NCBI GenBank assembly: GCA_977017645.1
Contig: OZ360228.1
Location: 97,030,001-97,094,000 of the forward strand
Length of the DNA stretch: 64,000 nucleotides
Source of the DNA: Torpedo marmorata
Lineage: Eukaryota
Reading direction: 5' to 3'
This document shows positions 416-38,580 of this stretch, one piece after another. How positions within the stretch are numbered: the first letter of the stretch is position 1; each line of letters starts with the position of its first letter. The translations under genes and the position numbers were made by a program. Under the pieces are notes generated by a model, which did not search any database, was not told the origin of the DNA, and was given only the letters and a program-made list of their open reading frames with translations.

Positions 416-692
416 CAGATTTTTATAGTGAATAAAATTGATAGGCCTATCAATGATTCTCGAGAGACAGTGAGTAGAACACGAACAGTAGGCTTTTATT
501 CACTATAAAAGGAAGCTACAGTTGACCTGCTGATCTATCCCGGACTGAGGGCGGAGCAGTGGCACAAGGGCCTTTATTCGGGGGAGGGGCTACCGGGACA
601 GCCAGGAAGGGGGAGGAGCAACCGGGACAGACAGCAGGACATGCCCCAGACCTATCCCCAGCCCACATTACACATAACAGTGGTTTACCACA
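1..692 (-). mobile_element. 5' end of a Mag-like Gypsy LTR retrotransposon (5' LTR 439-692 plus start of gag); continues beyond the window start
   Basis: On the minus strand the 254 bp LTR begins TGTGGTAAACCA and ends TGATAGGCCTATCA, like the LTRs at 22981 and 26927. It is followed by an open frame homologous to the gag at 23265. Confidence 0.93.
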
Positions 693-10645: not shown

Positions 10646-12310
10646 GGTAGAAAATCAAAAAAATATCCTGTCTCCATGAGCTGTTTATAGATATTTGAAA
10701 TTAACTCTAAAATTTGAGACTGCTATTAAAATAATAGCATGTTCAAGTGCTCTCCAGCACAAAATTTAAGATATAATCCCGTTACGAACTAACAAACCTT
10801 GCTAGTACTAACAAAGAAACAGCAATGGAATATGCACCAGACAATGGTAAATTCAAAAATAGTTTTTATTTAAACTATTAATAAGATAACATATCTTACT
10901 TATCTCTAAACTTAACTCTAACTTAAACCCCACTATGCGCAAATGTAAATGTGTGTGTGTTAAAGTCCAAACTAGTTCAGTTTAAACTTAATTCTGAAAA
11001 AGTCAATTTCTTAAAGTCCAGTTTCCAACTTCTTTTGTTGAACTTCAGGATCCCTTTAAATTGTGATTCAGAAATTATTATAAAGCAAGAATGGAATATT
11101 CCATTTCTTTCAAACTCACACGTCTTTTGATGAGTTGACTTTTAGAGATAGTCTTCATCTTCATACAAGTGTTCACAAGGTTCCCCCTATCTTGTTAGGG
11201 TTACGGAACTGTAATCTTCAAAATGATTTCTTTCTTAATCAGGAGTAACATACGATGATGTTCTATTTTCTTAGAAACAATTTGAAAAGTGGTCTTACTT
11301 ATTTTAAAAGCCACATATGGTGTATCTCCTATGATAAGGATAATACACAGAACAGCACCTCCTCACTCAGAGATCACTGTTCAGACTTAATTCTGCCTTT
11401 CCAGAATATTAAAGTTCTTCAGACTTTATATTTTCGTCTTTCCGAAGTGTCAGAGTTTTCTCCAGTCTGGTTCAATCTGCCTCAAAAATGTCTCTCTGCT
11501 TTCATTATATATTTCTGACATCATGTGACATTACATCACCACAATTTTAGTTTCATTTTCAGAAAGCATTACCTCATGCCTTTCTTCAAAATCACTTACA
11601 TCTGACCTCATCTCTGTTCCAAGAGGTTTAAGTGATTACGACTCCGAATAGTCTGGCATATGTCACTCAAGTGGCACTTGAGTTTGCAACAGCTGCTATC
11701 ATAAGGCTTTTAAAAACCACTTCAGTTTTTAAATCACTTAAATGTTTTTAAGCAACCACTTCAGGTTTTATGGCTTTTGTCTTTCATAGACATGTCGACT
11801 CCGAAAGACTCCCAGCTGCAATTTCTTTCTCAGTAATAGTTTTTTTTCTGCAAATGTGCCGTGACCCTGTACCAGCCCACAACTAACCTTACTAAGATAT
11901 CTAATTCTATAACTTAACTTTAAATATTAATATTAACATTAACACATCCGTCACACCTCCTTTCCACAGAGAAAAGTTTGAACTTCTAAAAGGTCAAAAT
12001 TTTAAATTACAATCTACCATTTATTTAATAGATTTCTTACACAACATGATACAAACAAATATTGCAGAAATAACATGTAAATTCAACATCTGGACAGGCA
12101 ATCAGCAATAACATTGTCTTTGCCCCCAAAATGAGTTATTACTAAATCATATTCTTGTAAAATTAAACTCCAGTTCAATAGCCATTTATTCCTAATTTTA
12201 CTCAAAAAACACCAACAGATAATGGTCATTGTAAACAATAATTCCATAGCATTGCAAATATATACTTCAAAATGTTGCAAAGCCCATACAAGAGACAATA
12301 ATTCCTTTTC

Positions 12311-14451
12311 AATAGTAGCAGAGGGGGGTACAGAGGCCTAGAGTTTGTAGCTTCTTGACCAGGACTGAGGGAATAATGATATTGAAGGCCGAGCTGTAGT
12401 CGATGAAGAGCAACCGTATGTATGAATTGCTGTTTTCAAGGTGATCCAGAGCTGAGTGGAGAGCCAGCGATATTGCATCTGCTGTGGAGCGATTGTGGCG
12501 ATAGGCGAATTGCAGTGGGTCCAGATTTTTGCTTAGGTATGTGTTAATTCTGGCCATGACCAGCCTCTCAAAGCATTTCATCACAGTAGAAGTTAGTGCT
12601 ACTGGGCGGTAGTCATTGAGTCAGCCCACACTACTCTTCTTGGGTGACCATGAACACTCCGGCTAGTTGGTTGGCGCAGATTTTCAGTACCCTGCCAGGT
12701 ACGCCGTCAGGGCCTGACGCCTTGCGAGGGTTCACCCTCTTGAATGATGTTCTGACGTCGCCCTCAGAGACAGATATCACAGGGTCCTCAGCCTTTTCAG
12801 GGATTCTAGTAGGCACTGTTTTGTTCTTCTTCTCAAAGCGGGCATAGAAGGTGTTCAGCTCATCGGGTAGTGAAGCATCACATGCGTCTATAGTGTTCGC
12901 CCTCGCTTTGTAGGCTGTAATGGCCTGCACTCCCTGCCATAGCTGGCGTGTTTCTGTCTCTGTCTCTAGCTTCCTCCGGAATTGCCACTTTGCTTCAGAG
13001 ATGGCCTTCTGCAGGTCGAGCCTGGACTTTTTGTAAAGATCCCGGTCCCCGGCCTTAAACGCCCTTGTTCTCGTCCTCAGCAGGTTACGAATTCTCTGAT
13101 TCATCCAGGGCTTCTGGTTGGGGAACACCCGGTATTTGCGCATGGGCATACACTCATCCACGCAGGTCTTGATGAAGTCGGTGACACCTGTTGCATATTC
13201 ATTTAGGTCTATGGCTGAGTGCTTGAATATGTTCCAGTCCACCGATTCAAAGCAGTCCTGCAGACGCTCCTCCGCCTCCCTCGACCATACTTTCGCCGTC
13301 CTCACCACTGGTGCTGTGGTCTTCAGTCTCTGCTTGTACGCCGGGAGTAGAAGTACAGCCAGGTGATCAGACTTGCCGAAGTGCGGTCGTGGTATGGCTC
13401 GGAATGCGATCTTCACGGTGGTGTAGCAGTGGTCGAGTGTGTTGATTACCCTGGTCTCGCAAGTGATGTGTTGGTGGTAGTTTGTCAGTGACTTCTTCAG
13501 ATTGGCCTGATTGAAGTCTCCCACAATGATCGGGAAGGCATCAGGATGTGCTGTCTCATGGCTGTTTATCACAGTGCTCAGTCCCTCCAGTGCCAGCCTG
13601 ACGTTAGCCTGGGGCGGAATGTACACTGCGACCAGGATGATGGCGGTGAACTCCCTCGGCAGATAGAATGGGCGACACTTGATCGCCAGATGTTCCAGGT
13701 CGGGGGAGCAGGACTGGGACATGACCATCACGTCTGTGCACCACGATGAATTGATAATGACACACACGCCGCCTCCCCTGGTTTTTCCAGACACTGGTGT
13801 TCGGTCAGCGCGATGGAGGATGTAGCCCTTGGGCTGTAGTGCCGTGTCCGGAATGTCCTCGTTTAGCCACGTTTCTGTAAAGCACATCACGCAGCACTCC
13901 CTGATGATTCTCTGATGTTGAAGTCTGGCTTGGAGTTCATCAAGTTTGTTCTCCAAGGATTGTACGTTGGCCAGGAGGATGGTAGGGAGCGGAAGCTTCA
14001 GGTCCCAGCGTCTCAGCTTGACTTGTAGCCCCCCTCTGCGTCCACGTGGTCGGGACTTCTTTACCTGGCCCGTGGGTCCACTGCCTATAGTTCCCGCAGT
14101 GTTTAAACGGTCCGTGCGCTGTCCCTTTAAATCCTGAGCAATTTGTAAGTGTGCTGAGTGCCTGCTGTCTGCGACTCCCGCGAAGTTTAAATGGCCCGTT
14201 CTCTGTCTGTTTAAAACTCCCGCAGTGTTGCTGCTGTACTTGCATGAGTTGTTTAAAGGTCCCGCGGCCCGATGGAGACTGCCGATTTTGCGAATTCCGA
14301 GTTCTGCCAGCGATCTTTGGACATCCACGTTGTCGGGTAAGTTTGATTTTGTGTTTCTTGTTTTTTGTTTGATTTTTAGAAGTTCTGAACGGGAATATTT
14401 GATTATTCCCGTCAGAGCTGCACGCAAAGAGTCGCCGCTGTAAGGCGCCAT
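12311..14451 (-). mobile_element. Rex1/Babar-type LINE, 5' half (APE endonuclease ORF 14451-12631 and RT start), 3' part missing, nested in the Gmr1-like element
   Basis: Motifs LANVQSL, CFTETWL, VGDFN, TLDHCY, GKSDH, KASGPDG, then MKCFERLV...FIDYSSAFN. Short internal deletion near 12640; no 3' tail. Confidence 0.9.
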
Positions 14452-15104
14452 CTCTCATTTCTATTTCAAACCTCCATTTTCTTTCTGCTTCTCTCCTTTT
14501 ATCTTCAAACTCCCTTTTCCTTTGGGCTTCCTCAGCTCTATGTTTGTCTAATTCTAGCTCAAACTGCCTCCACTTTTCAGCTTCTTCCGCGTCAAATCTC
14601 CTTTGGTGTTCTGCTTCCTCTCTTTGTTTTTCTGCTTCCTCTCTATCTTTCGTAATTCTATATTTTTCTAACTCCATCTCCTTTATACGTAGTTCAATCT
14701 CCATTCTTCGTCTCTCTAACTCAATCTGTTCCAGCTGTACCTGCTGCTTAAGAGATTTATTCTCAATAAATGGTTTTAACACCTCACTCTCAACCCTCTG
14801 CAACTCTGCAGAGCTTGGCCATTCCAAAAGCTTATCAAGTCTCACTTGGAAAGTTTCACTTGGTCCACACTTAGTTTTGGGGTTTAAAACATAATCATCT
14901 GCAATTTTTGCAGACTTTGACCAAGTCTCCACTTTCAAATCTACACCACTTGGTGTGACCAAACATTTACCAAAACCCATTGCTGCTGTTTTGTTTACAC
15001 ACACAATAAGCCTTTTAATTAGCTTTCAAAAAGATTTTTAACCAACAAATCGAATTTTAATCGATCAAATAAGCTCTCATTAAGCTCATAAATCTTTGGT
15101 AAAA

Positions 15105-15122
15105 ATCCCGGACAAGCCCCCA
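15105..15122 (-). promoter_or_regulatory. tRNA-Pro primer-binding site of the Gmr1-like element
   Basis: TGGGGGCTTGTCCGGGAT, one mismatch from the canonical tRNA-Pro PBS TGGGGGCTCGTCCGGGAT, 4 nt inside the LTR end. Confidence 0.88.
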
Positions 15123-15334
15123 ATTTTGTTACGAACTATCAAACCTTGCTAGTACACTTATAAAGAACTGTAAACATAACGAATGTAAACAAGCTGACTG
15201 TGCAATACAGAGAATTTAAAAAAAAACAAATTAAATTAACCAAAAAAAAACCAACCAAATTAAACAATAAAGTTAAGGATGTGGGCCCTTGTTGCTATTA
15301 TTTGTTGCAGATTTTACAAGGTCTAGCTCAAGAT

Positions 15335-18960: not shown

Positions 18961-19105
18961 CATCTAAGGCCTGCGTGTCTGACCCATCTAAAGCCTGCGT
19001 GTTGCAATCATCTAAGGTCTGCGTGCCTCACCATTCTAAGGCCTGTGTGTCTCAACCATCTAAAGCCTGCGTGTCGCATCAATTTCAAGCCCACGTGTCA
19101 TCACT
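18961..19105 (+). repeat. About 24 bp tandem repeat, 6 units
   Basis: Unit CATCTAA(G/A)GCCTGCGTGT followed by about 6 variable bases. Confidence 0.9.
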
Positions 19106-22630: not shown

Positions 22631-22980
22631 CCTGGAATGAGCTAGGTTAAAGGGTGACTTTATGAAGTTTTATAAAATCATAAGGGGCAGAGATACGATG
22701 GATGGTCACAATCTTTTTCCCAGGGTAGGGAAGTATAAAGATTCAAGATGCATTTTATTGACACGTAATAATAGAAAAAAATGTAATATACATGATATAC
22801 TTCAACTTTTGCCTGCCATAAAGGCAAACAAAGAACTTGAGAGCATTGGTTTGAGGTGAAAGGGGAAAGATTTAAAGGGGGATGTGAGGGATAAGTTTAT
22901 CAGAGAGGGTAGATGGTTAAACATAATGAGCTGCCAGAGAAAGTGATGGAGGCAGATACAATGCTACCATTAAAGAGGGA

Positions 22981-25900
22981 TGTGGTAAACCACTATAGTA
23001 TGTATATATGTATTGTGGGCTGGGGCAAGTCTGACCATGACCTGTCTGTCTGTCCCGGTGACTCCTCCCCCTTTCCCCTGGAATAAAGGCCTTGAGCCAT
23101 TGACTCCACCCACAGTTCCGGGACAGTCCTGCAGGGATCACCAGGTCAAGTGTAGCTTAGCCCTGGCCTGATTTCTGGTATTAAAAGCCTATTGATTTCC
23201 TGCACTTCCTGACTCGCGCTAGTCATTGATAGGTACATCAATTTTAATACCAGATCTCAATCTGATGGAGAATTTTCTGAGGCCGGACAAGCTGGACATC
23301 GACCCCCTGGCCCAAGACGCCGCAAGTGACTTTGAACTCTGGCTACGCTGCTTCGTAGCCTTCCTGAGGTCGACCAGAGCGGTTACCAACGAGAATAAAC
23401 TCGACATCCTCATGTCCAGGGTAAGCAAACGGGTGTATGGCACTGTCAGAGACTGTGATACCTATGAGGATGCCTTGGAAGCCCTCCGAAGACTGTACCT
23501 GACGCCGGTGAACGAAGTTTACGCGAGGCACAGGTTATCGCAACGGCACCAGCGACCCGGAGAGTCGATCTCTGAGTATATCCAGGACGTGCAGCTCCTG
23601 GTGCGGGCGTGCGATTGCCGAGCCCTGATGGCTGAGCAACACGCTGAAATATTGGCAAGGGACACTATCATTATGGGGCTCAGGTCGGTTTACATTCGCC
23701 AGCGATTGCTGGAACACGCCGACCTGACCCTGAGATCTACCGTCCAGACAGCCCTCACGCTGGAGTCGGCGCTCAGGAACGCTGACGCTATGCAGGCGCA
23801 GCCTGCCTCGTGGATCGCCCCAACCGCCAGCCCTGCAAGCAACGCGACGGCCGCTGCCGTCTACCGGGACCCGATCGCCGCCGCCGACGCTATCCGTGAG
23901 TTGGCCGCTGCCGCCGCTACCCGGGATCCCGCCGCCATCCGTGAGTTAACCGCTGCCGCTGTTACCCGGGAGCCCGAGAAGTGTTACTTCTGTGGGCTCG
24001 ACAAACACCCACGTAAGCGCTGCCCGGCCCGAGACGCGACTTGTTCTAGCTGCGGCAAGAAAGGCCACTACGCAAAGGCCTGCCGCTCCAAGTCGCGTAC
24101 GGGTCCGAGCAGCGCCGCGAGCGAAGTAAGGGAGCGGCCATCTTACCTGTCGTCACTTCCGGCGGTGACCTCGTGCGAGGAATGGAGGCGGCCATCTTGG
24201 CCTTCGGCATTTCCGGTATCGACACTTCCGGCACGGCCATTTTATAGCCTCACCGCGGCACTTCCAGCACTTCTGGCGCCGCCATCTTGTAGCGACACGT
24301 GCGACCTACGGGAGCTGCCATTAGCGTCGGATCAAGACGGCTCGTCGGATCAAGACTTCGTCCCGACCCTGGCATCCGTGACGCTGGATCAAAGCGCGCC
24401 CCATCAGCTGTCCAGATCGATGATGGACATATTAGTTGAGGGGCATAAGACTACCTGCCTGTTCGACACAGGCAGTACTGAAAGTTTTGTTCACCCAGAC
24501 ACCGCCCAGCGCTGTGGCCTCACAGTTGTACCGGTAAGCCAGAAGGTGGCCATGGCGTCTGGAACTCACACAACAGACATCCGGGGGGGTTGTGTGGCGA
24601 ATATAGTAGTGCAGGGCACGGAATATCGCGGGTTTTCATTGATGGTCATGCCCCGCTTGTGTGCTCCTGTATTGCTGGGACTGGACTTCCAAAGCCACCT
24701 GCGAAGCGTCACCATGCACTATGATGGGCCCCACCCTCCGATCGTAGTGACCAACCCCCAGTACTTGAATAATACGCCCCAGACTACCTGTGGTCTCTCC
24801 ACGCTGAAGACCCAACACCCGCCACTTTTCGCCAACCTGACCCCTGACTGTAAGCCTGTAGCAACTAAAAGTAGGCGATACAGTGCAGGGGACAGGGCAT
24901 TCATTAAGGCGGAAGTGCATCGTCTACTGGGGGAAGGGATCATAGCACCCAGTAACAGCCCCTGGAGAGCTCAGGTAGTCGTAGTGAAGAACGGGGCTAA
25001 GAGCCGGATGGTGGTGGACTATAGCCAGACCATTAACCGGTTCACGCAACTGGATGCCTATCCGCTGCCAAGAATCGCGGATATGGTCAACCAGATTGCG
25101 CAGTACAAAATATTTTCCACCATTGACCTAAAATCGGCTTACCACCAACTTCCGATTCCCCTTACCCCCAAAGCCCTTAAACGATGCCTCGGGTTCTTCT
25201 CGTATTATGCGCAGTGGGTCCCCAACTACGCGGACAAAGCCCGACCCCTCGTCAAATCCACCAAGTTTTCCCTAGCAGCGGAGGCACGTGAGGCCTTCGA
25301 CCTCATAAAAGGGGACATCGCCCGAGCAGCTACTCTCAACCAGGCGGGAAGACCGGTAGCGTTTTTCTCCCGCACCCTTCAAGGCCTCGAAATTCGGCAC
25401 TCCGCGGTAGAGAAAGAGGCCCAGGCCATAGTTGAGGCTGTTCGGCACTGGAGGCACTATCTCGCCGGAAAACATTTTACCCTGCTGACGGACCAGCGCT
25501 CCGTCGCATTCATGTTTAACAGCCAGCAGCGGGGTAAAATCAAGAATGATAAAATCACGAGGTGGAGAATAGAACTCTCCACCTACAATTACGACATCCT
25601 TTACTGGCCCGGGAAGCTCAACGAGCCCTCCGATGCTCTATCCCGGGGATCGTGCGCCAGCGCGCAGATCGACCGAGTATACTCCCTACACAACGACCTC
25701 TGCCACCCAGGAGTCACCAGGCTGTTCCACTTCATCAAAGCACGGAACCTGCCTTACTCCCTGGAAGAGGTCAGAACCATGACCAGCAGCTGCCGAGTCT
25801 GTGCGGAGTGCAAACCGCAGTACTACCGCCCCGACAAAGCACAGCTGGTCAAGGCCACCCGCCCGTTCGAACGTCTCAGTATAGACTTCAAGGGCCCCCT

Positions 25901-27185
25901 TCCCTCCACGAACCGCAACGTGTACTTCCTTAATATCATCGATGAGTACTCGCGGTTCCCCTTTGCCATCCCCTGCCCTGATACCTCGGCGGCTTCGGCT
26001 ATCAAAGCCCTCCGCCAGGTATTCACCTTGTTCGGGTTCCCCAACTACGTCCATAGCGATCGAGGATCCGCGTTCATGAGCGAGGAGCTGCGGCAGTACT
26101 TGCAGACCCGAGGCATCGCCACCAGTAGGACCACGGGGTACAACCCGCGGGGGAACGGACAGGTGGAGAGGGAGAACGCCACGGTATGGACAGCTACACT
26201 ACTGGCCCTGAAATCAAAAGGGTGGCCAGTGGCCCGCTGGCAGGAGGTTCTCCCGGACGCCCTCCACTCCATACGATCCCTCTTATGTACCGCCACTAAC
26301 GCTACCCCTCACGAACGTCTCTTTTCCTTCCCCAGAAAATCGACCACCGGAACTACCCTCCCTGCCTGGCTGACGTCCCCGGGACCGGTGCTACTCCGCA
26401 AACATCTTCGGAGTAGCAAGTACGAGCCCTTGGTCGAGAGGGTGCAGCTGATCCACGCGAACCCGCAGTACGCATTCGTGGTTTTCCCCGACGGGCGGGA
26501 AGACACGGTGTCAATACGGGACCTGGCGCCTGCAGGAGCGTCAGAAGAGGTCCCCGACAGCGGGAACGCCGGGTCACAGCTGCTCCCTCCGCCCCATTCG
26601 CCTCCCAGCACGGCGGGTACAACGCCCCAGCCGGAGCTGGAAGAGCCACAAGCCAGGCAGGAGGCATACCTGACCCAGACCCACCCTACCCTCGTTCCAC
26701 AACCACAACCATCACCGCAGGTATTATGTGCCCCCGTTCCACAACCACAACCATCACCGCGGGTATTGCGCAGGTCACAGCGGCGAACCCGGCCGCCGGA
26801 TAGACTCAATCTGTAGATGTGATGGTGACTATCTAAATAATCTGTGTATATTTGTGTGATCTTTAATTACGGTATCCACTTCACCCCCCCCCCCCCCGTC
26901 GGACTTGTTCTAAAAGAAGGGGTGAATGTGGTAAACCACTATAGTATGTATATATGTATTGTGGGCTGGGGTAAGTCTGACCATGACCTGTCTGTCTGTC
27001 CCGGTGACTCCTCCCCCTTTCCCCTGGAATAAAGGCCTTGAGCCATTGACTCCACCCACAGTTCCGGGACAGTCCTGCAGGGATCACCAGGTCAAGTGTA
27101 GCTTAGCCCTGGCCTGATTTCTGGTATTAAAGCCTATTGATTTCCTGCACTTCCTGACTCGCGCTAGTCATTGATAGGTACATCA
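22981..27185 (+). mobile_element. Mag-like Gypsy provirus with both LTRs (22981-23240 and 26927-27185), 5 bp TSD AGGGA, internally deleted pol
   Basis: TG...CA LTRs of 260 and 259 bp differ by one substitution and one 1-bp indel on my reading. PPT AAAAGAAGGGGTGAA at 26912-26926. AGGGA lies on both flanks. Confidence 0.97.
23265..26816 (+). CDS. gag-pol: Gag-protease-(deleted RT/RNase H)-integrase polyprotein in a single open frame
   Basis: Two CCHC knuckles (CYFCGLDKHPRKRC, CSSCGKKGHYAKAC), protease LFDTGS, RT start through IDLKSAYHQ, integrase HHCC and D-D-E (IDFKG, SDRG, GQVER). First ATG after the LTR is at 23265. Confidence 0.93.
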   Translation: MENFLRPDKLDIDPLAQDAASDFELWLRCFVAFLRSTRAVTNENKLDILMSRVSKRVYGTVRDCDTYEDALEALRRLYLTPVNEVYARHRLSQRHQRPGESISEYIQDVQLLVRACDCRALMAEQHAEILARDTIIMGLRSVYIRQRLLEHADLTLRSTVQTALTLESALRNADAMQAQPASWIAPTASPASNATAAAVYRDPIAAADAIRELAAAAATRDPAAIRELTAAAVTREPEKCYFCGLDKHPRKRCPARDATCSSCGKKGHYAKACRSKSRTGPSSAASEVRERPSYLSSLPAVTSCEEWRRPSWPSAFPVSTLPARPFYSLTAALPALLAPPSCSDTCDLRELPLASDQDGSSDQDFVPTLASVTLDQSAPHQLSRSMMDILVEGHKTTCLFDTGSTESFVHPDTAQRCGLTVVPVSQKVAMASGTHTTDIRGGCVANIVVQGTEYRGFSLMVMPRLCAPVLLGLDFQSHLRSVTMHYDGPHPPIVVTNPQYLNNTPQTTCGLSTLKTQHPPLFANLTPDCKPVATKSRRYSAGDRAFIKAEVHRLLGEGIIAPSNSPWRAQVVVVKNGAKSRMVVDYSQTINRFTQLDAYPLPRIADMVNQIAQYKIFSTIDLKSAYHQLPIPLTPKALKRCLGFFSYYAQWVPNYADKARPLVKSTKFSLAAEAREAFDLIKGDIARAATLNQAGRPVAFFSRTLQGLEIRHSAVEKEAQAIVEAVRHWRHYLAGKHFTLLTDQRSVAFMFNSQQRGKIKNDKITRWRIELSTYNYDILYWPGKLNEPSDALSRGSCASAQIDRVYSLHNDLCHPGVTRLFHFIKARNLPYSLEEVRTMTSSCRVCAECKPQYYRPDKAQLVKATRPFERLSIDFKGPLPSTNRNVYFLNIIDEYSRFPFAIPCPDTSAASAIKALRQVFTLFGFPNYVHSDRGSAFMSEELRQYLQTRGIATSRTTGYNPRGNGQVERENATVWTATLLALKSKGWPVARWQEVLPDALHSIRSLLCTATNATPHERLFSFPRKSTTGTTLPAWLTSPGPVLLRKHLRSSKYEPLVERVQLIHANPQYAFVVFPDGREDTVSIRDLAPAGASEEVPDSGNAGSQLLPPPHSPPSTAGTTPQPELEEPQARQEAYLTQTHPTLVPQPQPSPQVLCAPVPQPQPSPRVLRRSQRRTRPPDRLNL

Positions 27186-28394
27186 AGGGAAAAGGGCCAA
27201 ACACAGGTAAATGGGACTAACTCAGGTACGCAGCTTAGACAGCATGGATGAATTGGGCCAAAGGGCCTGTTGCTGTGTGCATAACTCTATGATCACAAGG
27301 CCAAATAAAATCTGATTTACAGAATAAAAAACAATACTGTGCATAAAGGTTTTTAAATGACCAGTATATATTACTATATACTTGCTGCAGTTCTTTAAAA
27401 AAAACATGATAACAGTCTCCAACTTAAAAAGAGCAATGATCATCCTTATTTCATCTTCTAAAAATGTAAGCTATAAATTTGAAATAACTTGGTACTTTTA
27501 AAAATTTTGGGACTGTTCATTATTTCCTCTGAACAACTTCCATGCAAACTTGATGTGACTGCAGCAGATATAATTTCAAACAGGAGAACGTTGCTGCTAC
27601 ATCTTGTCTCAAATAATTTAAATAACACACAAATGCACTTCTCAATTTTGTCATGTATATTTTCTTTTGCCCAAAGATCCTTGTTCTAAAAGGTATGCAG
27701 AGGTATGTTTAGTTGTCAAAGCCCAGTTAGCTTAATGCTTGAGATAGAAAACTGCCAAAAACAGTAAGTCAGAGATTCTAATACTGTTATGGTAGACAAT
27801 CAGCATGGACAGAACTGGCCTCCTCTTGTGTTGTAACCATTCTAACATTCAAAGAAAACTAATGGTAATTTGGACAAAAATACAGTAATTAAAAAATCTA
27901 ACATATGTTAAAGACAAATTATGCTTAACTAACATGGCTATGATTTTTTAATGAGGTAATTGATGATTAATGAGGACAATGCAGTTAATTTTGTACATGT
28001 GAATTTTCAAAAAGCATTTAAAGTGCAACAATTAATCAACAAAATTAAGCTGAATATTAATTTGCTCAGGGAAGCTGAAATAAAGAACTGAAAACAGAAA
28101 ATGTGGGCATCTTTGCATAGGGTTAACATCTTGGTTCAATGTCTTTTCATCAGCATTCTGTAGAGAAATGTAAAGTAATACACTTTAGTATGAAGAACGA
28201 TAAAAGCTAATGGAATAAGGGTATAATTCTAAAAGCACCGCTGGGATGGAGAATCTTGGGCATAAAAGTGCATAAATCTTTGAAGGTAGATGGACAGGTT
28301 TATGACACAGATTGACAAAATATATTGGATCCTGTGGTTGATATATAAATGGAAAAAATACCAAAAAAAAGGTGAATTTTAGAAACTGCTGGTT

Positions 28395-38067: not shown

Positions 38068-38580
38068 AACATGGGAAAAGAAAGAGTACTCTCTATTAGT
38101 AGGATAAAATAAACGCTAAACATCTGAAGTGCCATAATCCGATAGAAAAGAATATATTAATGAGGCAGATTTATTTAATGTAGCCGGATTAGAAGATGAA
38201 CGATCTAGGATAGGGTCCTGATAGGCCTTATCAATGATTACTCAAAGACTGTGAGAGTGAGTGAATCATAGGCTTTTATTATCAAAGAATGGAGCTGTGC
38301 TTCTCACTCGATCAGATCCGGACTGAAGGGGGTGGGCCAAATACAGTGGCCTTTAACCAGGTGAGGAAGGGGAGGGATTACCTGGAGACCCAAGGGAGGG
38401 GAGGGAGTAGGTATCAGTCCGGCCTGCAATACCAGAGCACACCACAACACACCAATACAAATACAGTGGTTTACCACAGGTCCAACCAACAGTTAAAATC
38501 CCCGCCTGGAATAAGCGAGTATAAACTTAAATCTGGCAAAGAAGTAAGAAGGTTTTCAAAAAACCCCGGATCATCAACAT
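38068..38580 (-). repeat. 248 bp inverted duplicate of 39418-39665, interrupted by a solo LTR
   Basis: Reverse-complement match by eye; 513 bp minus the 260 bp LTR and 5 bp TSD equals 248 bp. Confidence 0.93.
38219..38478 (-). mobile_element. Solo LTR (260 bp) of the Mag-like Gypsy group, TSD GGTCC
   Basis: Minus strand TGTGGTAAACCACTGT...TGATAAGGCCTATCA; GGTCC at 38214-38218 and 38479-38483. Confidence 0.94.

Follow-up and report, generated by a model that had tools for sequence, protein, structure and literature searches.

The window analysed here, a 64-kb stretch of the Torpedo marmorata genome, contains an LTR retrotransposon with the following layout.

22981-27185, plus strand: whole element, Ty3/Gypsy LTR retrotransposon
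22976-22980 and 27186-27190: 5-bp target duplication AGGGA, flanking the element
22981-23240, plus strand: 5' LTR, 260 bp, TG...CA
23081-23089, plus strand: TATA-like GAATAAAGG, putative promoter element (alternative reading, a poly(A) signal)
23111-23118, plus strand: Inr-like CACAGTTC, candidate transcription start at 23114
23174-23186, plus strand: LTR arm, the predicted primer, with ATTAAA inside (23180-23185)
23187-23234, plus strand: predicted second helix, in which GCCTAT (23187-23192) pairs with ATAGGT (23229-23234), stacking on the primer helix
23186/23187, plus strand: predicted cut site at the border of arm and second helix
23242-23254, plus strand: putative primer-binding site, complement of the arm, 1 nt past the LTR and without TGG
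23265-26816, plus strand: single gag-pol ORF of 1183 aa with two CCHC knuckles, protease, truncated RT, partial RNase H and integrase
26912-26926, plus strand: polypurine tract and spacer, preceding the 3' LTR
26927-27185, plus strand: 3' LTR, 259 bp, with the arm one A shorter

The element has the LTR termini TG...CA, target duplication, polypurine tract and domain order PR-RT-RH-IN of Ty3/Gypsy. The top match among solved structures was Ty3 Gag-Pol (E 1e-60), while the ESM Atlas returned generic names only. The two LTRs are 99.2% identical. A deletion has removed the RT core, including YxDD, together with the start of RNase H, and has left the reading frame open. The copy is young, RT-deleted and non-autonomous, and because the RT core is missing from its ORF it needs RT in trans. 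It can still make Gag, protease and integrase despite the deletion. A chromodomain is absent from the integrase of this ORF.

Paired arms in the window

A single A separates the LTR-terminal CA from the paired tract. The initial annotation had proposed that the tract 23242-23254 is the exact reverse complement of 23174-23186 and lacks the TGG of a tRNA primer site. Both points were borne out over the full 13 bp, as was a perfect 17-bp inverted pair, of different letters, between 421-437 and 494-510 in a relative at the window start. Two further families are represented in the window:

421-692, minus strand: second family; 5' LTR approximately 692-439, arm 510-494, primer site 437-421, 17 bp; the body runs past the window start
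38219-38478, minus strand: third family; solo LTR with duplication GGACC, of which full-length copies elsewhere in the genome pair over 14 bp

Only three perfect inverted pairs of at least 13 bp with a spacing of 20-120 nt occur in the 64 kb, and two of them are the arm pairs just described. When the LTR was resampled 20,000 times with a first-order model, its longest complement to the leader never exceeded 10 nt (0/20,000 reaching 11 nt), compared with the 13 nt observed.

At locus L031 (G000:C40:97021001-97031000), a LINE fragment splits the second-family element of the window start. This fragment in turn carries an inserted full element of the same group, with approximately 86-90% protein identity to P0001 and one stop in gag. 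A short tandem array with a 24-nt unit lies at 18963-19097.

Co-variation across the genome

A search pattern fixing five bases per arm matched 22,213 places in the genome, and a pattern fixing neither arm matched 25,641; the control gave 0 in both cases. From the second search we took the first 100 places, all near the start of one contig, and 96 of these are LTR-leader junctions. In the other four, a solo or 3' LTR happens to have an ATGGA. Pairing is complete (12/12) in 83 of the 96 junctions, reaches 11/12 in 11 and is broken in two, one having its arm region replaced and the other a single-base deletion. The two broken junctions were left out of later counts, leaving 94 copies. Over 12 positions these give 1117 Watson-Crick pairs, one G.U pair and 10 mismatches.

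The 83 perfect copies contain 22 different arm sequences. On a tree built without the arm and primer site, we counted 35 coincident changes on both arms at positions 4-12, compared with 3-7 when the partners were slid. Double transversions, such as A-U to U-A, are frequent among the arm swaps. For 32 variants obtained with the five-fixed-bases pattern the covariation score was 0.296 versus 0.114 after shuffling (0/500). Pairing drops to 71/94 copies at position 13 and 54/94 at position 14, and coincident change fades beyond. The claim that pairing rather than sequence is conserved is upheld by these arm variants and coincident changes and by seven families outside this genome that pair with other letters (see below). 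A self-complementary, co-varying putative primer site that does without a tRNA is thereby strongly supported at the sequence level.

The length at which perfect pairing fades, 12-14 bp, is near the spacing of approximately 13 bp reported for Ty3 RT from its polymerase site to its RNase H site (PMC5371799, excerpt); this may be a coincidence.

Wobble pairs in the primer helix are not favoured. At pair 8, counted genome-wide, U.G is found in 45 copies versus 59 with C.A, spread over several families; in the adjacent helix, G.U is the closing pair in 38 of the 94 copies. A lack of preference for wobble is to be expected when the site is copied anew from the primer. It could also be caused by a strict need for a regular helix or by correction through template switching. 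Among 20 mismatched copies that we checked, 13 have a 3' LTR; the 5' arm alone differs in seven of these, and in six both arms disagree with the primer site. Such copies are compatible with ordinary decay.

Search for tRNA primer sites in the clade and in control elements

None of the 96 junctions starts with TGG. The longest complement between the 32 leader variants and 20 tRNA genes was 5-7 nt, with a mean of 6.1 versus 6.0 for shuffled sequences; this tRNA set is partial, with nine anticodon types drawn from 30 loci and no tRNA-Pro. Other elements of the same genome served as controls. Those which we take to be Mag-type, judged by their motifs, carry TGGCGACGAG-type TGG primer sites, and Gmr1-type elements carry TGG sites of the TGGGGGCT type. 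The primer site of the clade occupies the exact position of these TGG sites.

The window itself contains an old Gmr1-like remnant (11900-15200, minus strand), interrupted by a LINE. An ordinary tRNA-Pro primer site had been ascribed to it. A TGG-initiated site is indeed present at approximately 15122-15105 on the minus strand, presumably of the tRNA-Pro type. Four other Gmr1-type loci (L257, L258, L259 and L263), with integrase before RT, have paired LTRs and ORFs of 1004-1321 aa in which our scan did not find YxDD. They are possibly an amplified family without an RT core. A search of the genome with RF00005 gave 364,395 rough tRNA-like candidates, suggesting abundant tRNA-derived repeats.

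Predicted RNA fold, poly(A) signal and candidate transcription start

RNAalifold, applied to the 32 variants, predicted a primer helix of 12 bp that stacks on a GCCT/AGGY helix of 5 bp. The initial annotation had noted a small hairpin at the end of all three LTR families. The three terminal 14-15-mers are present, but the hairpin is absent from the predicted structure and is without covariation support; its bases pair instead with the GCCT just 3' of the arm. One pair of the terminal hairpin is broken in 10 of the 94 copies, and most of its positions are fixed by the search pattern. The conserved second helix of the model is the RCCT/AGGY helix adjoining the arm. Folding of the region as a whole is not exceptional (z -1.47).

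The arm contains the hexamer AATAAA in 69 copies and ATTAAA in 23, together 92 of 94. Because the hexamer is kept so widely, poly(A) control also shapes the arm. Upstream of it stands the conserved GAATAAAGG. Relative to an Inr-like CAGT, its TAAA has the position -30 in 75 copies out of 89, and the range over all 89 is -29 to -32; the remaining five of the 94 copies have no Inr-like match. The distance from CAGT to the arm end is variable (50 to 75 nt). Judged by motif and spacing, the pair looks like a core promoter with its start 50-75 nt before the arm end. With a start upstream of the arm, the primer would be internal, unlike that of Tf1. We lean slightly towards this internal arm over an arm that forms the first bases of the RNA.

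Alternatively, the true poly(A) site could be an upstream AATAAA with the CA that follows it. The arm would then belong to U5, and strand transfer would be blocked. A poly(A) site upstream of the arm would be fatal to the self-priming model. Against this reading, the third family has GTTAAA at the position of the TATA-like motif, and in the complete outside LTRs examined there is no canonical hexamer upstream of the arm. A search for poly(A)-tailed retrocopies gave 11 matches at three places. Of the two inspected, one is a 3' LTR truncated at a T run by a further insertion, and the other is unrelated.

Relatives outside the genome

Among named proteins, those of rays and sharks are nearest (76-82% identity), followed by those of an anemone and Trichuris at approximately 60%; corals also carry relatives. 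Related proteins at 50-56% occur in flatworms, Trichinella, a spider and a sea slug. Among metagenomes we found 53 related loci, 15 of which, from seven families, have an intact LTR-gag junction; the others are too short, rearranged or without a junction, and two of the metagenome loci (L106 and L127) have deletions through the arm region.

Thirteen of the 15 junctions pair perfectly over 13-18 bp and two with one mismatch. CA-A-TTT is found in all 15 and TGG in none, and in 13 the arm ends in TAAA followed by RCCT. A hairpin directly after the arm was predicted in all seven outside families folded. The arm lacks a canonical hexamer in five of the seven families, three of which have one 5-28 nt downstream (two LTRs being partial); in all five families that possess a hexamer it lies in the arm or downstream of it. 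As the metagenome loci are spread over several branches of one clade, the self-complementary design is likely to be ancestral to the clade. A search of viral contigs gave 13 candidates, none of them related. Two clade members (P0016 and P0059) are deposited as proteins of bacterial metagenome bins on 4-kb contigs; they are likely to be animal DNA in these bins.

Proposed mechanism and alternative explanations

An arm of 12-14 nt in the element's own LTR is matched by an exactly complementary primer site. We propose that the clade primes reverse transcription with this arm, independently of tRNA, as in Tf1, and give this reading a probability of about 80%. By analogy with Tf1, the arm would fold onto the primer site in the RNA and stack on the RCCT/AGGY helix, and RNase H would cut at TAAA^RCCT. 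The freed 3' end would be extended over the single A into U5 and then through what remains of R. For strand transfer, the part of R on the 3' side of the cut would serve, so the poly(A) site would have to lie downstream of the arm. With the primer recopied into the plus strand, a mutation in the arm would reappear in the primer site within one or two generations. In the T. marmorata genome the primer helix would also hide the 5' poly(A) signal. If the primer is internal, its long 5' tail would have to be tolerated.

A more detailed version, which we offer tentatively and with the odds against it as a whole, describes an animal-wide Gypsy lineage in which self-priming evolved independently of Tf1/sushi. 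The primer would be internal to R: cutting at TAAA^RCCT would release a capped fragment of 50-75 nt whose 3' end is the primer, and a single helix would act as primer duplex and, in sharks and rays, as a mask of the 5' poly(A) signal. Rewritten from the LTR in each cycle, the site would drift freely and escape silencing by tRNA fragments.

The co-varying helix might also serve masking of the 5' LTR poly(A) signal only, with something else as the primer. Retroviruses are known to mask a promoter-proximal poly(A) signal in a hairpin, and in the clade the leader is absent after the 3' LTR and the arm nearly always contains AATAAA or ATTAAA in T. marmorata. Most outside families, however, have no canonical hexamer in the arm, and in three it stands downstream, outside the helix. 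A masking helix should accept G.U, but U.G shows no advantage over C.A. Under masking alone the element would have no primer site at all, and the constant spacing of 1 nt from the LTR end would go unexplained; we consider this reading unlikely. Element RNA might prime, though not through the 5' arm in cis, but through the arm copy in the 3' R or a short LTR transcript acting in trans. The arm is repeated in the 3' LTR, mirrored changes are predicted here too, and the LTRs, in their tens of thousands, could be a source of short transcripts. A local fold is nevertheless favoured by the conserved helix on the 3' side of the arm and by the short loop (34-66 nt), and a cut in the 3' copy would cost that molecule the R bases on which its transfer depends; priming of this kind seems quite unlikely.

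Two explanations have very little to recommend them. A tRNA fragment or other host small RNA could be the primer, the match to the LTR being secondary. Half-tRNA primers exist in copia-type elements (PMC6317226, excerpt), and the tRNA set compared here was partial. This is hard to reconcile with at least 22 site sequences within a single genome, each with a counterpart in its own LTR, and with tRNA matches no longer than those of shuffled sequences. Equally improbable is a functionless inverted repeat kept perfect by template-switch correction. Template switching gives mirrored changes without wobble, as observed, but the position, length and TAAA^RCCT junction of the pair persist at approximately 60% protein identity and in very different hosts. 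Priming by the element's own LTR arm is the reading that we prefer.

Significance

This is a large and widespread animal Gypsy clade with a real, strongly co-varying, self-complementary putative primer site. Its proteins occur in rays, sharks, corals, an anemone, nematodes, flatworms, a spider and a sea slug, and one vertebrate genome contains some 25,000 of its 5' junctions. Annotation pipelines that demand a tRNA primer site would miss or misfile it. tRNA 3' fragments target LTR elements through the primer site (PMC7472051, excerpt); a tRNA-free site could, speculatively, help to explain the amplification. The 22 natural arm variants are a ready comparative test of primer inheritance. In the excerpts available, self-priming is experimentally shown for Tf1 and otherwise predicted for chromovirus relatives and one plant copia lineage. 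A separate self-priming Gypsy group, if true, would be another origin.

Comparison with known systems

The description of the element as non-chromoviral agrees with its domain content, as neither a chromodomain nor a Tf2-type SH3 was found in P0001, P0003, P0022 and P0119. Some chromoviruses have lost the chromodomain; independence from Tf1/sushi is suggested by domain content together with Gag type. A Chromo search of the genome gave 15 matches, none of which gave a long RT-RH match. In a quick RT-RH tree of 40 rows with unnamed references (59 candidates less 19 near-duplicates), the 32 rows of the clade group together with support 99 and a stem of 2.06, apart from five Mag-type rows (stem 1.71) and from the Gmr1-type rows. 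Clade and Mag-type rows join in this tree with support 93, a value that carries a long-branch warning and depends on the same unnamed references.

The term Mag-like, used in the initial annotation, is not confirmed. The Mag lineage (A, B and C clades, SURL) has two CCHC knuckles, short LTRs, a single ORF and a wide range of animal hosts, and the clade shares all of these; the knuckles are at residues 240 and 260 of P0001. Mag-type elements of the same genome differ in being only 26-31% identical in pol, in forming their own long branch and in their TGG primer sites. Cigr-1 of Ciona, reportedly with LTRs of approximately 245 bp, one ORF of 3.6 kb and a SURL-like Gag, is similar in size and layout. 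A Cigr-1 clade has been named and is present in molluscs (PMC6238403, excerpt); the literature covered gave no statement about the primer of Cigr-1. A motif search in the available part of the supplement of PMC8556966 gave no match.

Other groups could be set aside. CsRn1 elements have a CHCC Gag motif, a tRNA-Trp site and a 4-bp duplication (PMC2582038, excerpt), whereas the clade has two CCHC knuckles, a 5-bp duplication and no TGG. The Gag motif of Saci-2 is CCCH (same excerpt). Gmr1 has its integrase before RT, in contrast to the order PR-RT-RH-IN of the clade. 'Selgy' was considered as the name of a self-priming animal clade; it denotes a Selaginella clade (PMC6317226, excerpt), and the matches listed were almost all plant papers.

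Self-priming is reported, in the excerpts available, for Tf1/Tf2/Tj1, the Tf1/sushi group including vertebrates, Tcn1, several fungal elements and TAR copia. Self-priming of the present clade is not described in the available portions of PMC6317226, PMC4600332, PMC5341516, PMC7175516, PMC6934838, PMC5371799, PMC6238403, PMC2582038, PMC2774666 and PMC3601003. The literature on self-primed gypsy elements that we covered holds no account of self-priming in the clade; Repbase reports and subscription papers lay outside its scope, and a prior note there is possible.

For the TAR lineage of plant Ty1/copia (Houba, Osr-1), self-priming has been predicted from sequence (PMC6317226, excerpt). It resembles the clade in this and in standing outside the chromoviruses; superfamily and hosts are different. 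As TAR copia shows, more than one origin of self-priming has been proposed.

The closest parallel in design is with Tf1/Tf2 of Schizosaccharomyces pombe, Tj1, Tf1/sushi and Tcn1, which share with the clade a site next to the LTR complementary to their own LTR, the lack of a tRNA and a single ORF. Tf1 self-priming reportedly requires a stem-loop, and a structured region lies beside the predicted cut in both Tf1 and the clade. The primer site of Tf1 is complementary to its own LTR and uses no tRNA (PMC7175516, PMC4600332 and PMC5341516, excerpts); the transcript's initial 11 bases pair with it, and RNase H cuts between bases 11 and 12 (PMC7175516, excerpt). The clade differs in its helix of 12-14 bp or more compared with 11 in Tf1, in an arm that usually holds a poly(A) hexamer and in a transcription start that may lie well upstream of the arm. 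Unlike Tf1/Tf2, it has two CCHC knuckles and neither a chromodomain nor the Tf2-type SH3.
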